From the NCBI GenBank assembly GCA_003251275.1, contig QKGJ01000134.1:1-38163 (forward strand): 38,163 nucleotides of DNA. Direction: 5' to 3'. This document shows, one piece after another, positions 2,218-23,412 of the stretch; within the stretch, counting starts at the first letter, position 1, and every line of letters begins with the position of its first letter. The notes beneath the pieces are model-generated. The model was not told the DNA's origin and did no database searches. It worked only from the letters and a program-made list of their open reading frames with translations. Source of the stretch: Ignavibacteria bacterium. GTDB taxonomy: Bacteria; Bacteroidota; Ignavibacteria; UBA10030; UBA6906. Made by a program: the position numbers and the translations under genes.

Positions 2218-3006
2218 ATGGAGCTGAACATCTCAGGGAAGAAAGCCGTGGTGTGCGGCTCCACGCGGGGTATCGGGTACGCTGTCGCCATGGAACTCGC
2301 GTCAATGGGGGCAAGCATCACTCTCATTGCCAGAAACTCCGAAGCGCTCACGCAAGCCCTCCGTGACCTCCCCGCAGCGAACAATCAAACCCATGATTTC
2401 CTCGTCGCAGATTTTTCAAAGCCTGAGACACTTCGCGCGGTGCTCAACACCTATGCTGCGAAAGCGCCCATAGTTCATATTTTGGTGAATAATTCAGGAG
2501 GACCAAAAGGAGGTCCCATCGCAGAGGCACAAACGGAAGAATTTGTCGGAACATTCGCGCAGCACCTTCTTTGCAATCACATACTTGTGCAGTCATTTGT
2601 TGCCGGAATGAAAAAGGCAGGGTACGGACGAATCATTAACATCATCTCAAGTTCGGTCAAGCAGCCGATCCCCAATTTGGGGGTCTCGAACACAATTCGG
2701 GGAGCGGTTGCATCGTGGGCGAAAACGCTTGCCGGCGAACTTGGCAAGTTCAATATTACTGTTAATAATGTCCTTCCCGGAACAATCAAGACGGGCAGAC
2801 TCGATTCGTTGATCAAAGCGCGAGCGGAGAAACTGAACGTGGATGGGGACACAGTCGCGGCTGAGATGATCGCCGAGATTCCGGCAAGACGATTCGCAGA
2901 ACCCAGTGAAGTGGCTGCGGCAGTTGCGTTCCTTGCGTCTCCGGCCGCCTCCTATGTGAACGGAATTAATCTCCCGGTTGACGGGGGTCGTTTGAGCTGC
3001 CTTTAG
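2218..3006 (+). CDS. Short-chain dehydrogenase/reductase, atypical active site (SxxxR)
   Basis: CGSTRGIG Rossmann motif, LVNNSGG, NNVLPG, VDGG C-terminus; SNTIR where YxxxK is expected. Confidence 0.9.
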   Translation: MELNISGKKAVVCGSTRGIGYAVAMELASMGASITLIARNSEALTQALRDLPAANNQTHDFLVADFSKPETLRAVLNTYAAKAPIVHILVNNSGGPKGGPIAEAQTEEFVGTFAQHLLCNHILVQSFVAGMKKAGYGRIINIISSSVKQPIPNLGVSNTIRGAVASWAKTLAGELGKFNITVNNVLPGTIKTGRLDSLIKARAEKLNVDGDTVAAEMIAEIPARRFAEPSEVAAAVAFLASPAASYVNGINLPVDGGRLSCL

Positions 3007-3010
3007 ATAA

Positions 3011-4453
3011 ATGGAACAACTCAAAAACTATATTGGCGGCAAGCTCATTCCGTCCGCGGACGGCGCTACATTGGAAAACTTCAATCCCGCGACAGGCGAT
3101 GCGTATTCTTCCCTGCCTGACTCAGATGAGATTGATGTTGCTCGCGCTGTTGACGCAGCCAAGAATGCTTTCCCGGCGTGGTCAACCACTCCAACCGAGG
3201 AACGGTCTCGTCTTCTCTTTCGCATAAGTCAACTGATTGAGCGAGATACTGAGCAGTTTGCTCTTGCTGAATCCACCGATCAGGGAAAACCGCTTGCGTT
3301 AGCACACAGTGTCGACATACCTCGTGCCGTTTCTAACTTTCGTTTCTTTGCCTCTTCCTTAATGCACTTTGCAAGCGAAGCTCATCCTATGGAGCAGGCG
3401 GCCATCAACTATACACTTCGCTCTCCTCTCGGCGTTGCCGGATGTATTTCTCCCTGGAATCTTCCAATTTACCTTTTCACGTGGAAGATCGCGCCCGCCC
3501 TTGCCGCGGGGAACTGTGTTGTGGCCAAGCCTTCAGAGCTAACACCTATGACTGCGTTTATGCTCTCCTCGCTCTGTATCGAAGCGGGCCTCCCGCCGGG
3601 AGTGTTGAACATCGTGCATGGGTTGGGCACAAAGGTTGGACAGGCAATTGTCGCACATCGCGACGTTCCGGCAATTTCTTTTACCGGAGGAACGGCGACG
3701 GGCCGAACAATCGCACAAACAGCCGCCCCGATGTTCAAGAAACTATCCTTGGAAATGGGCGGAAAGAATCCGGCGATCATCTTCGCTGATTGCAACTATC
3801 CTGAGATGTTGAAAACAACTGTTCAATCCTCTTTTTCGAATCAGGGGGAGATATGTCTCTGTGGTTCGAGGATCTTTGTGGAGAGGTCTTTGTACAAGCA
3901 ATTCAAACAGGATTTCATCGATGCGGTGAAAAGCTTGAAAGTCGGTGATCCTCTTGAGTCCGGAACAAATCTTGGGGCCGTCGTGTCAGAAGCACACCGG
4001 GAGAAGATTATCTCATATATTGCGTTGGCCAGGGACGAAGGCGGGACAATTCTCTTCGGCGGAAAAAAGGTGAATCCCGGCGGCCGTTGCAGCAATGGAT
4101 GGTTTGTAGAACCGACCATCATTGAAGGACTCCCTCATACCTGTCGCACCAATCAGGAAGAAATCTTTGGGCCAGTGGTCACGCTTACCCCGTTTGATCG
4201 AGAGGATGAGGTATTGCAGGACGCCAACAGCACTCAGTACGGTCTCGCGGCAATTCTCTGGACCGACAATCTTACCCGTGCACATCGGATTGCGGCACGT
4301 ATTCACTCAGGCATTGTATGGGTCAATTGCTGGCTCCTCCGGGATTTACGTACGCCGTTTGGTGGCATGAAAAACTCCGGTCTTGGGCGAGAGGGGGGGC
4401 TAGAGGCGCTTCGTTTTTTCACGGAACCTAAGAACGTGTGCATCAAATTATGA
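3011..4453 (+). CDS. Aldehyde dehydrogenase, probable 2-aminomuconate 6-semialdehyde dehydrogenase (ALDH8-like)
   Basis: PWNLP, FTGG, LEMGGKN, GEICLCGSR, EEIFGPV, WVNCWLLRDLRTPFGG motifs; context next to TDO and RidA. Confidence 0.88.
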   Translation: MEQLKNYIGGKLIPSADGATLENFNPATGDAYSSLPDSDEIDVARAVDAAKNAFPAWSTTPTEERSRLLFRISQLIERDTEQFALAESTDQGKPLALAHSVDIPRAVSNFRFFASSLMHFASEAHPMEQAAINYTLRSPLGVAGCISPWNLPIYLFTWKIAPALAAGNCVVAKPSELTPMTAFMLSSLCIEAGLPPGVLNIVHGLGTKVGQAIVAHRDVPAISFTGGTATGRTIAQTAAPMFKKLSLEMGGKNPAIIFADCNYPEMLKTTVQSSFSNQGEICLCGSRIFVERSLYKQFKQDFIDAVKSLKVGDPLESGTNLGAVVSEAHREKIISYIALARDEGGTILFGGKKVNPGGRCSNGWFVEPTIIEGLPHTCRTNQEEIFGPVVTLTPFDREDEVLQDANSTQYGLAAILWTDNLTRAHRIAARIHSGIVWVNCWLLRDLRTPFGGMKNSGLGREGGLEALRFFTEPKNVCIKL

Positions 4454-8709: not shown

Positions 8710-10049
8710 ATCCTGTTGAACTTATCCGGCGAAAACGAAACGGGGAACATCTCTCCCGCACCGAGCTGGAGCAATTCATCGACGGATATGTCAAGGGCTC
8801 TCTTCCCGATTACCAGATGACCGCCTTCTTGATGGCCGTTTTCTTTCAGGGGATGACACCGGAAGAGACCCGCGTGTTTACTGAAGTAATGCTGCATTCC
8901 GGCGAGGTGATCGACCTTGGTACTCTTCCTGGCATCAAGGTCGACAAGCATTCAACCGGAGGGGTCGGGGATAAGGTGTCCTTAATACTTGCCCCCATGG
9001 TAGCAGCCTGTGGCGTCCCCGTCCCAATGATCTCCGGCCGGGGGCTGGGGCATACCGGTGGAACATTGGACAAGCTGGAGTCGATTCCCGGATTTCGGAC
9101 CGATCTTTCCATCGAGGAGTATAAAAAGATTGTTGGCGAACTCGGCGTCGTGCTCATCGGACAGACCGAAAAATTAGTTCCGGCGGACAGGAAGATGTAC
9201 GCCCTGCGCGATGTTACTGCAACAGTCGAGTCCATCCCGTTGATTGCAGGAAGCATCATGAGCAAGAAGCTGGCCGAAGGAATCGATGCGCTTGTTCTGG
9301 ATATCAAGACGGGGAACGGCGCTTTCATGAAGAGTCAGGAAGATTCCTTGGCCCTTGGATCCACCCTTGTTGGACTTGGGAATCAGATGGGCAAAAAAAC
9401 CGTCGGATTTGTCACCGATATGAGCCAGCCTCTTGGCACAAAAATCGGAAATTGGCTCGAGGTTGTCGAGTCTGTTGACTGCCTTAGGGGCAAACGGATA
9501 CCAGACCTCATGGAGGTGACTTATGTTCTTGGAGGCGCAATGGTCTGGTTGGGAGGCAAGGCTGCTTCAATCCACGAAGGAATGAAGCTGTGTCAGGACG
9601 CGATCTGGTCCGGGAAGGCGTACGAGAAGTTCCTGCAGTTGGTGACCCGGCAGGGGGGAGATTCTCAACTTCTCGAAAACCTCGATCGCTATCCAGAATC
9701 GGATCACTCCATCGATGTCATCAGTCCCCTTGATGGTTATGTTGCCGGTTTTGATACATTCGGGATCGGCGTACTTGCAACAGAATTGGGCGCAGGACGG
9801 CTCAAAGTTGATGATGTTATCGATCCAAAAGCGGGAATCCAGTTACAAAAAAAAGTCGGTGACGCTGTTCAGAAAGGTGAGTCAATTGCGACGCTCTCCA
9901 CTGACAAAAGCGAAATAATCCAGAAGGCCGCGAAAAGATTTCTTGCCTGTATTTCGGTCAAGGGGAGTGCGCCGCCTGTCCTTCCGGCAATTCACAAATA
10001 CATTGATGACAAAGGACAGCACCCCTGGACCGCGCCGTCCCTGTATTGA
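8706..10049 (+). CDS. pdp: Thymidine / pyrimidine-nucleoside phosphorylase
   Basis: DKHSTGGVGDK, SGRGLGHTGGTLDKLESIPG, YALRDVTATV, SIMSKK, LGAGR; ATGA overlap with HAD. Confidence 0.95.
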   Translation: MNPVELIRRKRNGEHLSRTELEQFIDGYVKGSLPDYQMTAFLMAVFFQGMTPEETRVFTEVMLHSGEVIDLGTLPGIKVDKHSTGGVGDKVSLILAPMVAACGVPVPMISGRGLGHTGGTLDKLESIPGFRTDLSIEEYKKIVGELGVVLIGQTEKLVPADRKMYALRDVTATVESIPLIAGSIMSKKLAEGIDALVLDIKTGNGAFMKSQEDSLALGSTLVGLGNQMGKKTVGFVTDMSQPLGTKIGNWLEVVESVDCLRGKRIPDLMEVTYVLGGAMVWLGGKAASIHEGMKLCQDAIWSGKAYEKFLQLVTRQGGDSQLLENLDRYPESDHSIDVISPLDGYVAGFDTFGIGVLATELGAGRLKVDDVIDPKAGIQLQKKVGDAVQKGESIATLSTDKSEIIQKAAKRFLACISVKGSAPPVLPAIHKYIDDKGQHPWTAPSLY

Positions 10050-10133
10050 CATTAGACGAAAAAACAATCTTATTATTTCTGGTCGCGATGCATTTCAAGC
10101 GCAAAATTCGCCGATTGAACAAAGGATATTCCA

Positions 10134-10571
10134 ATGCCGGTCGTAACATTTCACAATGAACATAAAACATTCGAAGTAGAACAAGGAGTGAACCTTCGTG
10201 AATTCATGCTCAAAGTCGGTATCCCACCGTACAGGCCGATTGACAGGGCGCTTAACTGTCGGGGGCATAATCTTTGCGGAACCTGTTGCGTGGAGATAGT
10301 AGGAAACCGGGGCACTTCGCAACGAGGTCAGGACGAGGAAGCAACATTGCGTGGAAATTTTGCGATTGCACATGAAATCCAAAATGACACACGGCTCGCG
10401 TGTCAAACAATGATCATGAACGACATGACCGTCAAAACACATCCGTTGCTACCAATCGATTGGCCGGAAACCAAGCATCGACTCACGGCAACAGGTATTG
10501 CCGCTTTTTTTCTGCTTGCCTTCCTTTTCATGTTTGGAGTGATGTTTTTTGATATGATTAAGATGTATTGA
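10134..10571 (+). CDS. 2Fe-2S ferredoxin with C-terminal transmembrane helix
   Basis: CRGHNLCGTC...RLACQ ligand pattern; C-terminal GIAAFFLLAFLFMFGVMFF. Confidence 0.85.
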   Translation: MPVVTFHNEHKTFEVEQGVNLREFMLKVGIPPYRPIDRALNCRGHNLCGTCCVEIVGNRGTSQRGQDEEATLRGNFAIAHEIQNDTRLACQTMIMNDMTVKTHPLLPIDWPETKHRLTATGIAAFFLLAFLFMFGVMFFDMIKMY

Positions 10572-10669
10572 TTGCATTTGGTTTTGTAAGAAACATCACG
10601 GTCATAGCCACAAAAGTGGTGTCCTTTGGCACATCGTATTGCGTTCGAAGGGATTAGCAAAAAGGGGGC

Positions 10670-10698
10670 TTGACATTCGTGGACCTTGCGCGTACATT
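10670..10698 (+). promoter_or_regulatory. sigma70-type promoter for the 65-aa protein
   Basis: TTGACA (10670-75), 17 nt, TACATT (10693-98); GAGGAG SD upstream of ATG 10736. Confidence 0.7.
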
Positions 10699-10735
10699 CT
10701 TGTGGGCGTAGGAATACTTTCGAGGAGAAGCGGCA

Positions 10736-10933
10736 ATGATCCAAACCCTTAATGCGGTGGAAATGGACGCGCTGATTGATGTTCTCCACCAGCGTCTTGA
10801 CAGCGTCAGGCGAGAGTTGCTTGATGCAGAGGAGTACAATGATAAGCAGGGATTCAGACAGACTGAAGAAATGCTTCGTCGCCTCATCGGAAAGCTGGAG
10901 AAAGAGAAGATCGTCGCTCCAGCGGCCGGGTAA
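10736..10933 (+). CDS. Small helical hypothetical protein (paralog 1)
   Basis: Own promoter, SD and terminator; amphipathic helices; 20 of the first 57 positions identical to the next ORF without gaps. Confidence 0.8.
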   Translation: MIQTLNAVEMDALIDVLHQRLDSVRRELLDAEEYNDKQGFRQTEEMLRRLIGKLEKEKIVAPAAG

Positions 10934-10955
10934 CTTCTTGCATATTGTTCATCTT

Positions 10956-10987
10956 GGGCGGTTTCACAAGGAACCGCTTTTTTCTTT
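10956..10987 (+). terminator. Intrinsic terminator
   Basis: GGGCGGTTTC-ACAA-GGAACCGCTT stem (with G-U pairs) followed by a T-rich tract. Confidence 0.7.
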
Positions 10988-11004
10988 CTTAGACACTCTT
11001 CCTC

Positions 11005-11193
11005 ATGAATGATGGACTGAGCCCCGAAGAACGGGATGCCCTTGCTGATACACTTCGTGAGCACTTGCTGGCGTTACGCCGGTCTATTCTCGAAACCAGC
11101 GACGCAGAAGAGAAGCTTCGGTTGAAGACGAAGGAAGATATTCTAAAAACGATTCTCGGAAAACTCGAGCCGGAGTCTTCTTTTCGGGAATGA
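11005..11193 (+). CDS. Small helical hypothetical protein (paralog 2)
   Basis: Shares L-x3-E-x-DAL-x-D-x-L...RR-x2-L...K...E-x2-L...GKLE with 10736..10933. Confidence 0.75.
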   Translation: MNDGLSPEERDALADTLREHLLALRRSILETSDAEEKLRLKTKEDILKTILGKLEPESSFRE

Positions 11194-11195
11194 TT

Positions 11196-11975
11196 TCAAG
11201 GGGCGGGCTGACTGAGCACTGAGACCATCTGGTCGTGAATCTTACCATTTGTTGCAAGCACCTGTTTTAAGTAGATAGAGCTCGGTCTCCCGAGAAAATT
11301 TGTTACCCTCCCCCCTGCTTCCTCCACCAGCAACACACCTGCTGCCATATCCCATGGGTTGAGATTCACTTCCCAGAATCCATCAAACCTTCCTGATGCA
11401 ATATACGCGAGATCCAACGCAGCCGACCCAAGCCTTCGTATTCCTCCACTTTTCGTCAGGAAATGAACGAAGTGATCGATAGCGTGATCGGGGTTCACAC
11501 TGATATCGTACGGAAAACCCGTCACGAGCAGGCTGGCAATCAGTGTGGAGGAGGATGAAACGGAGAGTTTCTTCCCGTTCATATAAGCGCCGCTTCCCTT
11601 CTCCACGGTGAACAATTCATCCATGTTCGGATCATAAATTACCCCCGCAACAAGTTCCCCCTTGCGCTCAAGAGCGATTGTTACACAATAGACAGGGACA
11701 CCATGGAGATAGTTCGTCGTCCCGTCCAGAGGATCAATGACCCACTTGTATTCGGCAACGGCGTCACTTGCCCCGCTTTCCTCCGCAAGAATCGCATGAT
11801 TCGGGTAATGCCGGTGAATGTGTTGAATAATTTTTTCCTCGGATGCTTTGTCCAGATCAGAGACGAGATTTCGTTCCTCGCCCTTCTTTATCTCAATACT
11901 CTTCACTTTCCCAGTGTTATATTTCAGGAACTTCCCGGCTTCTTTTGCGGCCTCAATAGCAACATGTATCATCAA
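11196..11975 (-). CDS. suhB: Inositol monophosphatase family protein
   Basis: EES, WVIDPLDGTTNY, RRLGSAALDL, WDMAAG. Confidence 0.93.
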   Translation of the reverse strand: MMIHVAIEAAKEAGKFLKYNTGKVKSIEIKKGEERNLVSDLDKASEEKIIQHIHRHYPNHAILAEESGASDAVAEYKWVIDPLDGTTNYLHGVPVYCVTIALERKGELVAGVIYDPNMDELFTVEKGSGAYMNGKKLSVSSSSTLIASLLVTGFPYDISVNPDHAIDHFVHFLTKSGGIRRLGSAALDLAYIASGRFDGFWEVNLNPWDMAAGVLLVEEAGGRVTNFLGRPSSIYLKQVLATNGKIHDQMVSVLSQPAP

Positions 11976-12120
11976 TGGTCCTTTCCAATTTCAGTCAAGA
12001 TACCAAAAACGAAGGGACGATGCCATCTGATGCTACCACCATCAATCTCGATTGTTTGATCTCACGATGTATTTCCCTATTTTCTCGCAACTCTTTTGTC
12101 AACTTTGGAAAGTGTGATCG

Positions 12121-14253
12121 ATGAGAATTCTCTTCACAATTGTTCTTGTCATTCTTTTGTCCGGGTGTCAATCAAGTCGGAAACCCGAAATCTCCCGGCG
12201 GCCTCGTGTTAGCGTCGATGATTTGGGCATCTCAATTCAATCTCCTGACCGCGGATTCATGCTTTCGGACAAGCGCGGCGGGTATCTTCTTCGCACAGGA
12301 CAAGAAAGCACAGCGTCCGGGCTTGGTTTCACATGGTTCGTTGGCCCACAAACTATTTGCCGGTCTTTCCACGCGTCAATTGATGGGGATGAGGTACTCT
12401 GGGAAAAGTCTCTCGTTACTGTTTTTCCTCACAAGGTCGTCTATGTCCATAATGCAGATACCGTTGTCGTGCACAACCTCTTCGTTTCTTCAGCAACGAC
12501 GCACGCTGTCGAAGTGGAGATTCGCGCAGCATCAGTTGCGACTCTCGTATGCTCTCAGAAACCTGAATTGAAGAACACGATATCAATCGCGTCAACTGAG
12601 AACCTAGCGAACTCATCAGAAAGTGCTCAGGTGCACGGGCGAATTGCAAACTTTATCCTCGTGTACGATCACATACAACGGGTCGAAGCCGAAGTAATCT
12701 TTCCTTCCTTGCAGGAGTATCGGCAAAGGAACAAAGACCGCTGTGATAGTCTCCTGAACAGGATGTACTTCTCAACAGAGGATGAAAACCTCACCAGGGC
12801 AGTACGATGGGCACAGTTGATGGCCGACGGGATGCTCACGACCGGATCAGATATTTCCTTGATGACAGAAGTCCCTCAACCCCGGGCAACAGATATTCGT
12901 CCCATCGTTGAATCATTGTCGTCCCTCAATCTTTCTTTGGGAAACCCACCCGAGCTTCACAGCTTGATCACGAGGATTGCTGCATACCAGGACGTTGAAC
13001 AGAATAGTCCCACCTCGGGGAGAATTGCATCGCGAATCAGCGGGAAGCAAATGAGATACGATGGCGCGGATGTTACGTCCTTGTTTGTCCGGCAGCTGTA
13101 CAGCTACATCGCCGCCTCCAACGACACCGCGCTCGCCCGTTCGATCTTCCCTTTCATTCAAAGGAGTATTGATGGGCCTTTGAGTAATCGGGTTGACTCG
13201 CTTGGCTTGCTGATCCATGGCGCCAATGAAACATGGATGCGCGCCGACGGCGTCGGGCCGCGCAGAGGCAACAGGGCAATTGAGGTTCAGAGCAATTGGT
13301 ATTTTCACCAGTATATCGGTGCGTTGTTTGCTTCCTACTTCTACGACAGCGTGCAAGCGTCCGTCTGGGGACTCGGTGCAGAAAAGACGATGAATGCCAT
13401 CAATGAATTCTACATGGATACCCTGCATCAGCGGATGTATGACCATCTTCTTCCCAATGGGGTTCCCGTGTACGAGTCACGGCCCAACGTGTTATCCTCA
13501 TTTGATATTCTCCGAAGCGAGATAAGTCGGAAGGAAATAGTGGAGGATGTGATGGACCACCTTGTGACACTGGAGGGTGTTGCGACGCTCTCGCCGTCGT
13601 TACCGGGTCTCTCTCTCTTCGATGGAGCCGTGTGGCCGGTTCTTTCGCGCGATATCATTCAGGCCTTGGCACGATTCGACCGGGAGGATCTCAGCCTCAA
13701 GATTACCGTCGGGTTGACACGTTCCATCCTTGGCGAGGGTGTTGTTGGATGCCTCCCGAATGTAAAGTCGCAGTCCGTTAAAAGTGCAACCACACCGGTA
13801 TACCTTCCCTCCATCACATCCTATTCATTGTCAATTTATGAAACATACCTGGGAGTGTCGATCGACGCGTCCATCCCCGTAATCACTCTGACGCCTCTCC
13901 TTCCAGTGCCCCTCTCGAGCGTTGATTTTACAGTCTACGTCGGCAGACATCCTTTGCATATCTCCTACGATAATGACGAGCAAGCCTTTCGTCTTTCCGT
14001 TCATTCTCCCGACATTGCATTGACTTTGAATTTCCTGTGCATATTGTGGAATGGCGATGGCTGGAAAGGGAGTGCCCGCATCAACCGTGATGAGCACACG
14101 CTGCTCGTGATGACTCCATCGAAACTTTCAGCATACAGAGAGGATAGAGACGTGAAGATTGAAGAAGCAACATTCCTTGCCCGGTATTCACGCAGGAATT
14201 TTTTCGATGGATTTCAATTCGCCCCAATGCGGCAGGCCTCTACTCACGAGTGA
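12121..14253 (+). CDS. Lipoprotein with amylo-alpha-1,6-glucosidase/six-hairpin glycosidase-like domain, apparently degenerate
   Basis: Lipobox LLSGC; HGANETWMRA...PRRGNRAIEVQSNWY, RPN, G.ATLSP, DGAVWP resemble glycogen-debranching (GDE_C) motifs. Confidence 0.65.
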   Translation: MRILFTIVLVILLSGCQSSRKPEISRRPRVSVDDLGISIQSPDRGFMLSDKRGGYLLRTGQESTASGLGFTWFVGPQTICRSFHASIDGDEVLWEKSLVTVFPHKVVYVHNADTVVVHNLFVSSATTHAVEVEIRAASVATLVCSQKPELKNTISIASTENLANSSESAQVHGRIANFILVYDHIQRVEAEVIFPSLQEYRQRNKDRCDSLLNRMYFSTEDENLTRAVRWAQLMADGMLTTGSDISLMTEVPQPRATDIRPIVESLSSLNLSLGNPPELHSLITRIAAYQDVEQNSPTSGRIASRISGKQMRYDGADVTSLFVRQLYSYIAASNDTALARSIFPFIQRSIDGPLSNRVDSLGLLIHGANETWMRADGVGPRRGNRAIEVQSNWYFHQYIGALFASYFYDSVQASVWGLGAEKTMNAINEFYMDTLHQRMYDHLLPNGVPVYESRPNVLSSFDILRSEISRKEIVEDVMDHLVTLEGVATLSPSLPGLSLFDGAVWPVLSRDIIQALARFDREDLSLKITVGLTRSILGEGVVGCLPNVKSQSVKSATTPVYLPSITSYSLSIYETYLGVSIDASIPVITLTPLLPVPLSSVDFTVYVGRHPLHISYDNDEQAFRLSVHSPDIALTLNFLCILWNGDGWKGSARINRDEHTLLVMTPSKLSAYREDRDVKIEEATFLARYSRRNFFDGFQFAPMRQASTHE

Positions 14254-15523
14254 GGGTTTTGGGAGAGCAACTTTTCTTCAGCCATTCAGCACGGCGGGTA
14301 TCGATGCGAAATTGCATCGTGATCTTCTCCCCCTCGTAGCTGGTATGAAGAACTTCGGCAATGTCGTGAATCCGAGAAATCAAATCATATTCCCTCTGAC
14401 CGAAGGTCATCGTGAGTTCACTCGTATGGCGCTCGAGAAGCGCGATGATCCGTTCTTTCAGTCCTTCAATGTTAATCCCCCGCGCCGCAGATATAAACAC
14501 CCCGTTCGTGTATTGAGAAGCCAGGTATTGGAGCACTCCCCGGTTTTCCAATCTGTCAATCTTATTGAAAACCATGATAACTGGTGTTACCGGATCCACC
14601 CCTATCTCCTCCAGCGTTTCGCGAACAACAGTGATATGCTCTTCAAAGAGGGGGTGACTGACGTCGATGACGTGCAAAAGCATTTCGGCCTCGCGAACCT
14701 CATCCAGCGTACTCTTGAACGAAGCGATCAAATGATGCGGCAGTTTGCGGATGAAGCCGACGGTATCCGACAACAGAATCCTATGAACAGATGAAATCTC
14801 CGTCAGACGTACCGTTGCGTCGAGGGTCGCGAAGAGTTTGTCTTCAACAAGAACACCCGCGTCAGAAAAATAGTTAAGAAGAGTGGACTTCCCTGCATTG
14901 GTATATCCGACGAGTGCAACCCGCGGAAAATGCTCTCGTCCTTTACGCTGTACTTCTCGTTCGATCCCGATGGTCTTGAGTTTGCGGGTAAGATGGCTTA
15001 TGCCTGTCCTGATGGCCCGGCGATCAGTTTCAATTTGCGTTTCCCCGGGTCCTTTTGTTCCTATCCCGCCATATTGCTTCGAAAGGTGCGTCCATTGCCT
15101 CGTCAGACGCGGCAGCATGTATTGCAGCTGCGCAAGCTGTACCTGTGTTTTCGCCTCACGCGATCGCGCCCGGGATGCAAAGATATCGAGAATGATGCCG
15201 CTGCGATCGACAATCTTACATTTGATCACCTTTTCCAGGTTTCGCACTTGCACCGGAGAAAGGTCATCATCGAAAATTACTATATCGATTCCCTTTTCTC
15301 CGACGAGCGATGAAATCTCTTCTGCCTTACCACTCCCGATAAAGAAAGCCGCGTCGATGGATTGGCGTTCCTGGAGTATTCTTGCAACGATTTCTGCACC
15401 CGCCGACTCGGCCAGAAACGCAAGCTCATCCAAATATTCCTCCACCTTGAACCGCCTCGACGATTGGGTCGCAACCCCGACCAAGAGAGCACGTTCCTTT
15501 TTCACCGTCTCGACCAATTGCAC
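14240..15523 (-). CDS. hflX: Ribosome-splitting GTPase HflX
   Basis: GPGETQIETDRR, G1 GYTNAGKST, LFATLD, DTVGFI, NKID, SA. Confidence 0.97.
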   Translation of the reverse strand: MQLVETVKKERALLVGVATQSSRRFKVEEYLDELAFLAESAGAEIVARILQERQSIDAAFFIGSGKAEEISSLVGEKGIDIVIFDDDLSPVQVRNLEKVIKCKIVDRSGIILDIFASRARSREAKTQVQLAQLQYMLPRLTRQWTHLSKQYGGIGTKGPGETQIETDRRAIRTGISHLTRKLKTIGIEREVQRKGREHFPRVALVGYTNAGKSTLLNYFSDAGVLVEDKLFATLDATVRLTEISSVHRILLSDTVGFIRKLPHHLIASFKSTLDEVREAEMLLHVIDVSHPLFEEHITVVRETLEEIGVDPVTPVIMVFNKIDRLENRGVLQYLASQYTNGVFISAARGINIEGLKERIIALLERHTSELTMTFGQREYDLISRIHDIAEVLHTSYEGEKITMQFRIDTRRAEWLKKSCSPKTLTRE

Positions 15524-20866: not shown

Positions 20867-21130
20867 ATGACTACGAAACCACCTCCATCAGTCCGGAAGG
20901 ATCCTGATACCAGCCTTGAACGTATCGCTTACGGTAGCGTGGCAGGTATTCCCACGGTTGAACCACACGACCAGGACCGTCTTGGTTTCTGCGTATGGCG
21001 ATCCCTGCAACTAAGGCGCGATCCGCTTGACGTGGCGGTCCATTTTGCCGGCGCTCGCTTGCTTATCAGTGAGGAAGAAGCCTTAACAAAAATACGTGCC
21101 CACCTGAAAACCCACGGGATTACCGCATAA
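20867..21130 (+). CDS. Hypothetical protein (87 aa)
   Basis: ATG start, protein-like composition, stop 6 nt before marC on the same strand. Confidence 0.65.
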   Translation: MTTKPPPSVRKDPDTSLERIAYGSVAGIPTVEPHDQDRLGFCVWRSLQLRRDPLDVAVHFAGARLLISEEEALTKIRAHLKTHGITA

Positions 21131-21136
21131 GGCGGC

Positions 21137-21718
21137 ATGGAGACCCTCCTCCTCGCGTTCATTCCTCTCTTTGTTGCGATTGATGTGTTCGGAGTTCTTC
21201 CCCTCTTCGTCGGTCTTACAGATCACCTCAGCGATCAGCAACACAGAGTACTGACGATCGAAGCAACGCTTACTGCGCTGACGATCTCGATCCTTTTTCT
21301 TGGACTGGGAGATCTTTTGTTCACCTTTCTTGGCATCACGGAAAATGACTTCCGTGTTGGCGGCGGGATTGTCTTGCTGGTTCTGGCAGTACAGGATTTG
21401 CTGTTTGCACGGGAGAGAAGAGGCGATGCAAAGGAACCGGTGGGTATCGTTCCCATAGGAATCCCGCTTATCATGGGACCTGCCGCCCTCACAACAATCA
21501 TTATCGTTAAAAATGAATATGGTTACGGATGGACGATTGCTTCATTGACAATCAATATGCTAATCGTCCTGATTGTCTTCCTTCAGGCGAAACGCATCAG
21601 CAGGGCGATGGGAAAAGCCGGCTCGCAGGCTGTCGCAAAGGTTGCCGCATTATTCCTAACCGGGATTGCCGTTTTCATGATCAGAAGCGGGATTGAGGGA
21701 ATGCTGCGACATAATTAG
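21137..21718 (+). CDS. MarC family membrane protein
   Basis: LFVAIDVFG..P.F, FRVGGGIVL, IVPIGIPLIMGPAALTT; six TM helices. Confidence 0.93.
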   Translation: METLLLAFIPLFVAIDVFGVLPLFVGLTDHLSDQQHRVLTIEATLTALTISILFLGLGDLLFTFLGITENDFRVGGGIVLLVLAVQDLLFARERRGDAKEPVGIVPIGIPLIMGPAALTTIIIVKNEYGYGWTIASLTINMLIVLIVFLQAKRISRAMGKAGSQAVAKVAALFLTGIAVFMIRSGIEGMLRHN

Positions 21719-22632
21719 ATCGCTTTCCTGAATTCCTCCGCCACCCCGAATCCCCACTCGTCTTTCAACACTGACCCACACTCAAGCAGGAATGGAAATA
21801 CAGCAGTTGTGGCAGGAGGAAGAGGTATTTGCTTGCCCTCCTGGACATGGGAGATGATTTGAAGTGCGTTTGCAACACCTTTTCCTTCCGGTGTGTTGTT
21901 GCAGATGACAATCACTTTCTCCACATCCCTTGCGAGAAGCTGAATACGACGGATGATTTCTCGCAGCTCTCGGACATTGTACAAGTAGGAATACCGGCTA
22001 TCCATCTCATTCGTTAGCCACCCCTTTTCGTTTCTTCCATGAAGCCGGACATACACAATATCACCAACCTGTCGCGTGAGACTCGGGATGAAATGGCTGA
22101 TGCGTGGTAAATCAGAGCTGACTGATCGAAGCTGGCAATCCTCCAGAAGGCGAACAATCGTGGATTGATCCCACGAGTCATGACGGAACTCTACGTGGAC
22201 GGGGAATCCGCGAAATAGCTCAGCGAGCTTTGTTAGATATTGCCGGTGACTGCTGGTGTTTGTGAACGCATACGGAAACTGCGCAAGAATTCCACCGAGC
22301 TTGTTCGACTGGAAGAATTCCTGCGCCACTTTACGGATCTTCCTCGCCCGGGTCGTGTTTAGATCCTTTCTGTGCGTCAAAGAGGAATGGAGCTTGAAAG
22401 TGAATTGAAACCGACCGTTCTGCTCCACTGCGGCAACCCATTGCCTTGCCTCTGCTTCGTTGATATCTTCATCCCAGAAGGTTGATCGTATCTCAGTTGC
22501 ATCAAAGAAGCGGGAATAGTAGCAAAGCTTTTCAATCGCATCAGCCTCCCCCATTTGATACAATGCCGCGTCAAACCCTTCGTGTTCCCATCCGCTCGTC
22601 CCAACAAACCAATTAGGTGATTTCGTCTTCAT
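21715..22632 (-). CDS. DUF72 (YecE-like) TIM-barrel protein
   Basis: VGTSGW, E.RSTF, LAQFP..F, VEFRH.SW, YVRLHGRN, Y.YLY, NN; GGAGG SD. Confidence 0.9.
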   Translation of the reverse strand: MKTKSPNWFVGTSGWEHEGFDAALYQMGEADAIEKLCYYSRFFDATEIRSTFWDEDINEAEARQWVAAVEQNGRFQFTFKLHSSLTHRKDLNTTRARKIRKVAQEFFQSNKLGGILAQFPYAFTNTSSHRQYLTKLAELFRGFPVHVEFRHDSWDQSTIVRLLEDCQLRSVSSDLPRISHFIPSLTRQVGDIVYVRLHGRNEKGWLTNEMDSRYSYLYNVRELREIIRRIQLLARDVEKVIVICNNTPEGKGVANALQIISHVQEGKQIPLPPATTAVFPFLLECGSVLKDEWGFGVAEEFRKAI

Positions 22633-22652: not shown

Positions 22653-22681
22653 TTGACAGAGTTGATTCAATTCCTTATCTT
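22653..22681 (+). promoter_or_regulatory. sigma70 promoter for the XRE-S24 repressor
   Basis: TTGACA 22653-58, 17-nt spacer, TATCTT 22676-81. Confidence 0.75.
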
Positions 22682-22689
22682 GCGCCGTC

Positions 22690-22718
22690 AAGATACGACA
22701 TAATTGTCGTCTTGTCAA
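22690..22718 (-). promoter_or_regulatory. sigma70 promoter for DUF72
   Basis: Minus strand TTGACA (22718-13), 17-nt spacer, TATCTT (22695-90). Confidence 0.75.
22695..22710. promoter_or_regulatory. Operator O1, palindrome ACGACA-TAAT-TGTCGT
   Basis: Perfect 6-bp inverted repeat filling the spacer of the DUF72 promoter. Confidence 0.7.
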
Positions 22719-22727
22719 GACCTTCTG

Positions 22728-22741
22728 CGACAAATGTGTCT
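22728..22741. promoter_or_regulatory. Operator O2, CGACA-AATG-TGTCT
   Basis: Second GACA-N4-TGTC copy, centred 32 bp from O1, just upstream of the repressor start. Confidence 0.6.
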
Positions 22742-22761
22742 TTCACTTTTACGGGGTGATC

Positions 22762-23412
22762 ATGAAATCTACCATAGGCGACCGTCTACGCGAAGCACGC
22801 GAGAACAAAGAATTGGACCAGTCCTCCCTTGCCGACAAGATCGGTGTTGCAACCCGGACAGTTCAGCGATGGGAAAAGGGGGAGCAGGTTCCCCATGGAG
22901 TTGCGATCAACAAGATCGCAAAGGCCACCAACGCCTCTCCTGCATGGCTTTTGACGGGATCCGGCCAAATGTATGAAGCCCCTTCGCGACCGAATAATGT
23001 GTACCCGCTGACCACATCATTTCGTCGCAAGATCAAGCTTGCAGACATTCCCCTCCTCTCCTCTGTCCCGGCGGGGAAGCTCGCGACGATTTTCCATTCC
23101 GATTATGCGGAGAGCTATGTTACCGTCGATGATGTCAAGGATCCGCAGGCCTTTGCGCTGAAGGTCAAAGGAAACAGCATGTCCCCGCGAATCGAGGATG
23201 GAGATATTGTAATTGTCAGTCCGCATGGAGAAGCCCGGAGCGGAGACATCTGCGTCGTCCGGGTGAACGATGAGGATACTCTGAAGAAGGTCAAGTTTGA
23301 GGGGAGTTATATCCACCTTATTCCTTTAAACCCGGAATTCGATCCAGTGACCGTAAAGAAAAAAGATGTGAATTTTGCCTGGAAAGTCGTTAAGCTGATA
23401 AAGGAATTATAG
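22762..23412 (+). CDS. XRE-family HTH + S24 peptidase repressor (CI/LexA-like, autocleavable)
   Basis: IGDRLREAR...LADKIGVATRTVQRWEKG HTH; VPAG cleavage site; VKGNSM catalytic Ser; DTLKK catalytic Lys; L.PLNP.F. ATG 22762 preferred over GTG 22756. Confidence 0.93.
   Translation: MKSTIGDRLREARENKELDQSSLADKIGVATRTVQRWEKGEQVPHGVAINKIAKATNASPAWLLTGSGQMYEAPSRPNNVYPLTTSFRRKIKLADIPLLSSVPAGKLATIFHSDYAESYVTVDDVKDPQAFALKVKGNSMSPRIEDGDIVIVSPHGEARSGDICVVRVNDEDTLKKVKFEGSYIHLIPLNPEFDPVTVKKKDVNFAWKVVKLIKEL

Follow-up and report, generated by a model that had tools for sequence, protein, structure and literature searches.

How can a gap of 129 bp serve two divergent genes if the promoters within it point towards, and run across, one another? 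The question is raised by positions 22633-22761 of contig QKGJ01000134.1 (assembly GCA_003251275.1, Ignavibacteria bacterium), a stretch of 38,163 nucleotides that is referred to here as the window. To the left of the gap lies a gene for a protein of the DUF72 family and to the right a gene for a repressor that joins an HTH_3 helix-turn-helix domain to an S24 peptidase domain; between them are two promoter-like sites, P_DUF72 and P_rep, and two palindromes, O1 and O2 (Table 1). We consider it likely that the locus belongs to a small SOS-like regulon under a non-canonical, LexA-like repressor, in which face-to-face promoters share operators. The argument is built from the layout of the control region, from its behaviour among relatives with and without the DUF72 gene, and from the recurrence of the same combination of promoter and operators ahead of DNA polymerase genes.

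Two crossed promoters and two operators

A reading of the sequence alone (hereafter the sequence-only reading) had described two mirror-image promoters interlocked with two operators, and its account of the promoters holds: TTGACA-17-TATCTT is found at 22653-22681 on the plus strand and at 22718-22690 on the minus strand, with the same hexamers and the same 17-nt spacer, and the -10 boxes are separated by just the 8 bp from 22682 to 22689. Each promoter matches 10 of the 12 consensus positions, and both have the hexamers, the spacing (17 ± 1) and the orientation towards a gene that define sigma-70-type promoters. A consensus scan returns these two as the sole promoter-like sites within the intergenic region; across 2.5 kb it returns five, against 1.8 ± 1.4 in shuffled sequence. 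With transcription starts placed 7 nt beyond each -10 box, the start codons lie a further 51 nt (DUF72) and 74 nt (repressor) downstream. An alternative plus-strand promoter made up of the right-hand box and O2 (TTGTCA-17-TGTGTC) was considered and set aside: in the window its -10 lacks both the final T and the A at position 2.

RNA polymerase covers promoter DNA from about -55 to +20 and melts it from about -11 to +3. Taking the textbook footprint and the predicted starts, the two polymerases would overlap over 22663-22708 and their melted regions over 22681-22690; each promoter would lie inside the first transcribed bases of the other. By its coordinates, and with the starts as predicted, the arrangement is a face-to-face promoter pair with shared operators.

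Bacteroidetes proper use another promoter consensus, and the host's own promoter usage was therefore checked. Counted over the two strands of the 3.38-Mb genome, the pattern TTGACA-17-TAnnnT occurs at 91 sites and a backwards control at 27; long open frames leave just 5% of the genome uncovered, and 36 of the 91 sites lie there. Allowing one mismatch, the pattern stands upstream of five of 36 tRNA genes and at none of 36 downstream controls; among the intergenic sites TATCTT and TATATT are common forms of the -10 box. From these genome counts, the intergenic enrichment and the placement ahead of tRNA genes, the host can be taken to use sigma-70-type promoters of exactly the form of P_rep and P_DUF72. 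A preference for T at -16 is mild genome-wide (57% of promoter-like sites, 44% of coding-like ones).

As the sequence-only reading had it, O1 lies inside the 17-nt spacer of P_DUF72 (22696-22712) and just past the predicted repressor start, at about +9 to +22 of P_rep, while O2, at about +41 to +54 of P_rep, begins 32 bp after O1, a distance that is kept at 31-33 bp in relatives. When a matrix derived from relatives' operators was run over the genome, O1 and O2 ranked second and fourth; first and third place went to a tandem pair upstream of dinB. The next 12 sites after these four score 14.2-17.5 bits and are mostly found inside long open frames. Two that are not, C50:4121 and C299:5998, were considered as a possible widening of the regulon; neither has a -35/-10 cassette, their neighbouring open reading frames (ORFs) have no Pfam family, and they were treated as chance. 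Genome-wide, 10 exact copies of the palindrome CGACA-N4-TGTCG stand against three of the control, and only two of the 10 are high-scoring operator sites; the exact-palindrome count by itself says little. In relatives the arms of O1 are invariant and its centre is A/T-rich yet variable.

Table 1. Coordinates of genes, promoter elements and predicted operators in the window
Feature	Position	Strand	Basis and remarks
DUF72 gene, 305 amino acids (aa)	21715-22632	-	Pfam DUF72, E=5.6e-42; target of the leftward promoter P_DUF72
P_rep -35 box, TTGACA	22653-22658	+	Consensus scan
P_rep -10 box, TATCTT	22676-22681	+	Consensus scan; predicted start ~22688
P_DUF72 -10 box, TATCTT (AAGATA on + strand)	22690-22695	-	Consensus scan; predicted start ~22683
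O1, CGACATAATTGTCG	22696-22709	.	Predicted operator; core CGACA-N4-TGTCG with perfect 5-bp arms
O1 extended, ACGACATAATTGTCGT	22695-22710	.	Matrix score 24.0 bits
P_DUF72 -35 box, TTGACA (TGTCAA on + strand)	22713-22718	-	Consensus scan
O2, CGACAAATGTGTC	22728-22740	.	Predicted operator, upstream of the P_DUF72 -35 box
O2 extended, GCGACAAATGTGTCTT	22727-22742	.	Core GACA-N4-TGTC at 22729-22740; matrix score 17.6 bits
Repressor gene, 216 aa, HTH_3 (XRE/CI type) + peptidase S24	22762-23412, ATG at 22762	+	Pfam
N6/N4 DNA methyltransferase gene, 540 aa	23435-25057	+	Pfam N6_N4_Mtase, E=2.6e-13

Conservation of the control region and recurrence of the cassette

Two sets of relatives were compared. 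The first comprised 60 relatives from the same family and order, from which 30 repressor loci were fetched; the second, wider set comprised 80 Ignavibacteria loci with a repressor ortholog, 55 with a divergent DUF72 gene (DUF72-type loci) and 25 at which no DUF72 neighbour was detected. In the first set DUF72 lies divergently beside the repressor gene at 28 of the 30 loci, and the control region is kept at all 30. In the second set both promoters and O1 are kept at 54 of the 55 DUF72-type loci. The -35 box of P_rep reads TTGACA at 53 of these, TTGACT at one and was not found at one (L092); wherever it was found (54 loci) the spacer is 17 nt. The TAnnnT form of the P_rep -10 box is likewise kept at 54 of 55, as TATCTT (22), TACATT (11), TATATT (10) and others (11). 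Across 54 DUF72-type loci O1 and O2 are 32 bp apart in 49 instances, 31 bp in four and 33 bp in one.

What separates the two groups of loci is the leftward promoter. Its -35 box (TGTCAA) is present at 54 of the 55 DUF72-type loci and at one of the 25 loci without a detected DUF72; for the -10 box (TAnnnT) the figures are 51 of 55 and one of 25. The lone DUF72-less locus with a leftward -35 box (L044) is cut by a contig end and has 75 bp of upstream flank only. In contrast, the rightward TTGACA-17-TAnnnT is also kept in the absence of DUF72, at 21 of the 25 loci. Given the difference between 54/55 and 1/25, the leftward promoter is gained or lost together with the gene that it would serve, and the earlier assignment – leftward promoter to DUF72, rightward promoter to the repressor – is backed by the comparison. 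At 16 of the 21 DUF72-less loci with P_rep the gap measure is -3 to 2 (mostly 1), that is, the -10 box abuts O1; at the other five it is 8 or 29-32. The extra 8-10 bp of the DUF72-type loci accommodate the -10 box of P_DUF72.

A comparison of 55 distinct control regions shows conservation at both -35 boxes, at positions 1, 2 and 6 of the -10 boxes and at the operator arms, and nowhere else. Information is concentrated in CTTGACA (with the P_rep -35 box near 2 bits per position), ACGACA/TGTCG(T), TGTCAAG and the GACA/TGTC of O2, while the stretches between them vary: a pattern of variation that looks like that of promoters and protein-binding sites. Since TTGACA-17-TAnnnT is rare, the operators are among the top-ranked sites of the genome and conservation is confined to boxes and arms, the two-promoter arrangement is, judged by these comparisons, not a product of chance.

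It could be argued that the rightward promoter alone is real, that the right-hand TGTCAA and AAGATA are extended contacts of the operator and that DUF72 is transcribed from elsewhere. TTGACA does contain the operator half-site GACA, the right-hand box adjoins O1 directly and is conserved together with it, and the start sites are predictions. The right-hand boxes nonetheless track the DUF72 gene and have no partner half-site at the N4 distance; the -10 box varies as a promoter does, fixed at positions 1, 2 and 6 and free within; the 129-bp region holds no further promoter-like site; and ahead of dinB and polB genes (below) TTGACA-17-TAnnnT with O1 in its spacer is correctly oriented with nothing else upstream. 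Set against these points, a purely operator role for the right-hand boxes is improbable.

Two further features of the control regions were observed. The sequence AATTC is conserved at 22669-22673, in the spacer of P_rep (about -19 to -15), in the 55 control regions. At three loci (L011, L014 and L020) an ORF for a Cdd1-type helix-hairpin-helix protein (97 aa; PF11731, E=2.5e-27; L011 1195-1485, plus strand) is inserted between control region and repressor gene, and in L011 its ATG falls inside O2; the distance from O1 to the repressor ATG is long at about 12 of the 80 loci, and these group with the Cdd1-type insertion.

The leftward half of the control region, O1 together with the P_DUF72 -35 box, defines a 23-bp cassette: CGACA-N4-TGTCG-N3-TGTCAA. 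A search of 61 genomes of the family found it at 100 places in 57 genomes, with one to three copies in each; the backwards control was not found in any genome. Thirty of the cassette loci were fetched. Ten are repressor/DUF72 loci, nine lie before dinB and 11 lie before an operon that encodes a 222-aa protein, a 115-aa protein and a family-B DNA polymerase (DNA_pol_B, E=3.4e-32; the NCBIfam type-B polymerase models match below their cut-offs). The 222-aa and 115-aa proteins have no Pfam or NCBIfam family.

The window's own genome shows the cassette in a second setting. On contig C214 an operator pair scoring 24.9 and 21.8 bits, 30 bp apart (AAGATACGACAAATTTGTCGTCTTGTCAAG), accompanies a TTGACA-17-TATCTT promoter, with O1 in the spacer and the second operator upstream of the -35 box, and the promoter points at dinB, a Y-family polymerase gene with IMS domains. 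Behind this single cassette promoter, over about 9431-14700, follow dinB, a 251-aa ORF, a 265-aa ORF, an ORF of about 115 aa and a family-B DNA polymerase: five tightly packed genes whose stops and starts overlap or are closely spaced, in an order that resembles PolB2 mutasome operons. The 251-aa ORF scores 19.9 bits against the Pfam DUF72 model, under the cut-off of 25.3, and has neither BLASTP similarity to the DUF72 protein of the window nor a relative in the Protein Data Bank (PDB). The presence of the same cassette before dinB and before the polB operon suggests that the repressor runs a small regulon comprising translesion polymerases, DUF72 and the repressor itself.

These loci also bear on what the operator pair is for. 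The sequence-only reading had taken O1 and O2 to be operators, which comparison supports, and, possibly, to be a device for autoregulation, which it does not: the same pair brackets the -35 box at dinB and polB promoters with no repressor gene nearby. The pair is accordingly better seen as a generic design of target promoters, judged from where it recurs, with the repressor's own promoter reading through it.

A role for the palindromes in RNA, as hairpins or as a stem that pairs O1 with O2 in the 5′ leader of the repressor transcript, would account for some of the same features, for O1 is a perfect hairpin-former, O1 and O2 are 85% complementary over 13 nt and both fall in the predicted leader. 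At the dinB and polB promoters, however, O1 sits between the -35 and -10 boxes and O2 upstream of the -35 box, so neither would be transcribed. The arms, moreover, are invariant and do not covary, variation is limited to the 4-nt centre, as in a site bound by protein, and the spacing between O1 and O2 is held at 31-33 bp. We give the RNA explanation very little chance.

A further ORF accompanies the cassette at some loci. It encodes a cysteine-rich protein of about 84 aa (CxxC...CxxC...CxxC) with no Pfam family and is the first gene after the cassette at eight of the 20 dinB or polB loci: five of the nine dinB loci and three of the 11 polB-operon loci (for example L146, 1194-1445, minus strand; the others are L129, L131, L145, L147, L122, L126 and L127).

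A CI-type repressor and the distribution of LexA

The repressor matches Pfam HTH_3 (E=1.9e-11, residues 9-63), Peptidase_S24 (E=2.7e-26, residues 97-204) and Phage_CI_repr (E=1.1e-7). In the PDB its C-terminal half resembles LexA, UmuD and lambda CI and its N-terminus P22 C2, and lambda CI matches over residues 17-197. An alignment of ten orthologs shows Gly105, Ser139 (in GxSM), Lys175 and Lys176 to be invariant, and Ala104 (in VPAG) to be present in nine; within the helix-turn-helix domain TRT-QRWEKG-Q, in the region of the recognition helix, is invariant. By analogy to LexA, from which the residue assignments are taken, the protein carries the features of a self-cleaving repressor of the LexA/CI type.

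It does not fall within the canonical LexA class. The window repressor has no match to LexA_DNA_bind (PF01726), and the NCBIfam lexA model reaches 73.7 bits against a cut-off of 110.95, over the C-terminal part only. Nor was LexA_DNA_bind found when 40 other family genomes, many of them 97-100% complete, were searched. Among the 60 relatives of the first set a strong LexA_DNA_bind match (E<=2.3e-16) is present in three genomes only (G040, G042 and G058); all three are among the 15 without a repressor ortholog, and at the same loci they have only a C-terminal S24 match to the window repressor. A further match, in a 359-aa frame of G037, is marginal at 25.2 bits, and those in three other genomes fall below the cut-off. 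This near-complementary distribution of LexA and the CI-type repressor, in what is a small sample of related genomes, fits a replacement of one by the other.

Orthologs of the repressor (E<=1e-70, 52-98% identity) are present in 45 of the 60 relatives, each listed with a single match of this strength, which argues that the gene is an inherited chromosomal gene and not that of a prophage. One ortholog (G013:C98:9910-10479) is matched from residue 27 only and has two in-frame TGA codons, which may point to a pseudogene or to an error of assembly.

A protein of this kind could, even so, be the local switch of a mobile element, an immunity-type repressor, or a regulator that answers to a signal other than damage, with its S24 domain not used for RecA-triggered cleavage. 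Its N-terminal domain is like that of phage CI and P22 C2, a DNA methyltransferase gene follows it in the window's genus, and recA has no operator. On the other side, the gene is inherited across the family and most of the order, at the identities given above and with one listed match per genome; the ORF lists hold no phage genes beside it; and the methyltransferase occurs within the window's genus alone. Residues of the cleavage site (Ala-Gly) and of the catalytic dyad (Ser/Lys) are conserved, the targets are translesion-type polymerases, and canonical LexA is not found in the 40 other family genomes. We judge a mobile-element or non-damage role unlikely, and a LexA-like role for the repressor the better account.

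Proposed mechanism and known systems

How, then, would one control region serve two genes? A protein bound in the spacer between -35 and -10 boxes blocks binding of RNA polymerase, and S24 repressors self-cleave on RecA filaments. From these precedents and the comparative data we infer the course of events that follows – repressor binding, start sites, exclusion of one promoter by the other, cooperativity and induction by damage. P_rep would drive the CI-like HTH/S24 repressor and P_DUF72 the TM1631-type TIM-barrel protein DUF72. Repressor dimers would bind O1 (strongly) and O2 (more weakly). With O1 occupied neither promoter would be usable, since O1 would block P_DUF72 through its spacer and P_rep through +9 to +22: DUF72 would be off and the repressor would limit its own synthesis. 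O2, three helical turns away and across the P_DUF72 -35 box, would add cooperative binding.

Upon DNA damage RecA filaments would trigger cleavage of the repressor, which is to be expected because it shares both the Ala-Gly bond and the Ser/Lys dyad with LexA and lambda CI, and all promoters of the regulon would be freed. P_rep and P_DUF72 would then compete. They could not both hold an open complex at once, because footprints and melted regions overlap, and a polymerase that escapes from one would run over the other. Expression of DUF72 and resynthesis of the repressor would thus be in competition until new repressor refilled O1.

Several observations weigh against this account, in whole or in part. 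Induction by damage is predicted solely from motifs in the protein and from the kind of genes that it would control. The best match to the operator in the 500 nt upstream of recA scores 1.1 bits (random windows average -1.4, with 6.8 as the 95th percentile), that is, no operator was found there, and the regulon is, on the evidence of its sites, not a full SOS regulon. The -10 sequence TATCTT differs from TATAAT at two positions. Between the -10 boxes of DUF72-type loci the gap is 8 bp (five loci), 9 bp (25) or 10 bp (24), a variability that weakens models in need of an exact inter-promoter geometry. The exact cassette is missing from four of the 61 family genomes and no repressor match was found in six of 36, some of these instances being due to incomplete assemblies or contig-end effects. 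The compared genomes are kin, so that all such counts overstate independence. Finally, the window's own assembly does contain a canonical LexA (LexA_DNA_bind + S24): its gene lies at 2719-3309 (minus strand) of a 3.3-kb contig (C87, 1-3321) and is followed by a 388-aa and a 421-aa ORF without Pfam family. No counterpart of this contig was found in the genome from the same genus or in 19 further relatives, save one weak 90-bp match, and we suspect from its distribution that it is a foreign contig (a binning contaminant) or possibly an accessory element.

A bolder version of the model can be formulated. This family of Ignavibacteria would lack LexA and have the repressor as its only SOS-type regulator, a third class among the non-canonical LexA proteins that is set apart by the operator GACA-N4-TGTC; the minimal regulon would consist of DinB, a PolB2-type ‘mutasome’ operon and DUF72 proteins, the last as damage-inducible repair enzymes; and the crossed promoters would be a competitive switch that shares polymerase between a repair gene and repressor resynthesis during recovery. 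We put this forward tentatively, as a possibility with somewhat less than an even chance of being correct. If it were true, the widespread and uncharacterised DUF72 family would be marked as damage-inducible DNA-repair enzymes.

The elements of the system have parallels in well-known switches. In Tn10 the divergent, overlapping promoters of the regulator tetR and its target tetA share two operators, from which TetR is released by a ligand. In phages lambda, 434 and P22 a dimeric helix-turn-helix repressor binds short palindromes that are spaced by whole helical turns; in lambda the promoters PR and PRM stand back to back, CI also activates PRM, and CI is inactivated by RecA-stimulated self-cleavage. 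Unlike those of tetR/tetA and lambda, the promoters described here are crossed: their predicted starts are about 5 bp apart and the operators 31-33 bp apart. The regulon of LexA2 of Pseudomonas putida contains little beyond LexA2 itself and imuA-imuB-dnaE2. LexA2, however, has the canonical winged-helix domain and coexists with a main LexA, whereas the repressor described here has a CI-type DNA-binding domain, and a main LexA was not found in the 40 other family genomes.

A closer parallel to the promoter arrangement is trfAp/trbAp of plasmids RK2/RP4, where, according to PMC7314908, opposite-strand promoters face each other and interfere, and repressor sites decide which one fires. In RP4, as described there, repression of a strong promoter activates a weak one, which makes a switch between two programmes. 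Here, in contrast, the two promoters, which have identical hexamers, should both be shut by the one operator that lies over them, and the regulator is of the S24 self-cleaving type.

For the regulator the nearest precedent is the non-canonical LexA of Bacteroidetes (Sanchez-Osuna et al. 2021, PMC8565304), which, in the accessible sections of that report, recognises GGA-N5-TCC or CTAA-N5-TTAG and is placed by BLASTP exclusively in Bacteroidetes. The two share, to judge from those sections, the combination of HTH_3 and S24 domains, the Ala-Gly site with Ser/Lys residues, genomes without canonical LexA, a predicted autoregulation, and palindromic operators before translesion polymerase genes (dinB), often two to a promoter; the hosts, too, are akin, in that the window's lineage appears within Bacteroidota in GTDB. 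They differ in the operator, which is GACA-N4-TGTC here – neither Bacteroidetes motif matches (C)GACA-N4-TGTC(G) – and the published proteins were set beside ours by description. The regulon, as far as the published one is described in those sections, is much smaller here, has no recA site and includes DUF72 and the family-B polymerase operon. Neither Ignavibacteria nor DUF72 occurs in the text of PMC8565304 as accessed.

The targets have their own precedent. PMC11791011 describes, in the part available, PolB2 ‘mutasome’ operons of the form iRadA-PPB2-PolB2, with lexA and DUF72 enriched near polB2 and DUF72 as a TIM barrel close to UV-damage endonuclease. The polymerase operon found here likewise has three genes, ends in a family-B polymerase and is tied to a LexA-type regulator and to DUF72. 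Where that work, in the part seen, deals in gene-neighbourhood enrichment, an operator, a promoter cassette and a CI-type regulator are described here. The 222-aa and 115-aa proteins may be iRadA-like and PPB2-like, a suggestion that comes only from gene order and from the description in PMC11791011. No prior description of this DUF72/dinB/polB regulon was found in the literature searched, which did not cover subscription journals.

If the proposed regulon holds, it extends the control of damage responses by a CI-like protein in place of LexA from Bacteroidetes to the neighbouring Ignavibacteria, with another operator and a pared-down regulon, and so bears on the origin and replacement of SOS networks. 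It would also provide a regulatory clue for DUF72, a large and functionally uncharacterised family to which TM1631 belongs, in the form of a cassette held in common with dinB and the polB operon; because the DUF72 link is conserved across dozens of genomes, a role in DNA damage is directly testable. The control region itself offers a compact case of two equal promoters that, from their layout, are expected to be mutually exclusive and to be closed by a single operator. Close relatives without DUF72 show the one-promoter form, and the two make a useful pair for the study of promoter interference. Every step beyond the conservation of sequence is, of course, our inference.

The genes on either side can be described more briefly. 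The DUF72 protein of the window scores 144.7 bits against the PF01904 model (gathering cut-off 25.3), and its closest solved relatives are TM1631 (1vpq, E=3.9e-25) and EF0366 (1vpy). The methyltransferase gene starts 22 bp after the end of the repressor gene and is possibly co-transcribed with it. A tblastn search of 110 loci found full-length relatives of the methyltransferase only at its own locus and that of the nearest relative (together L009, L010 and L039). Being present in the own genus only, it is a recent insertion outside the conserved module that may ride on a damage-regulated transcript. Further to the left of the DUF72 gene an 87-aa ORF without Pfam family (20867-21130, plus strand) lies upstream of a MarC-family gene.

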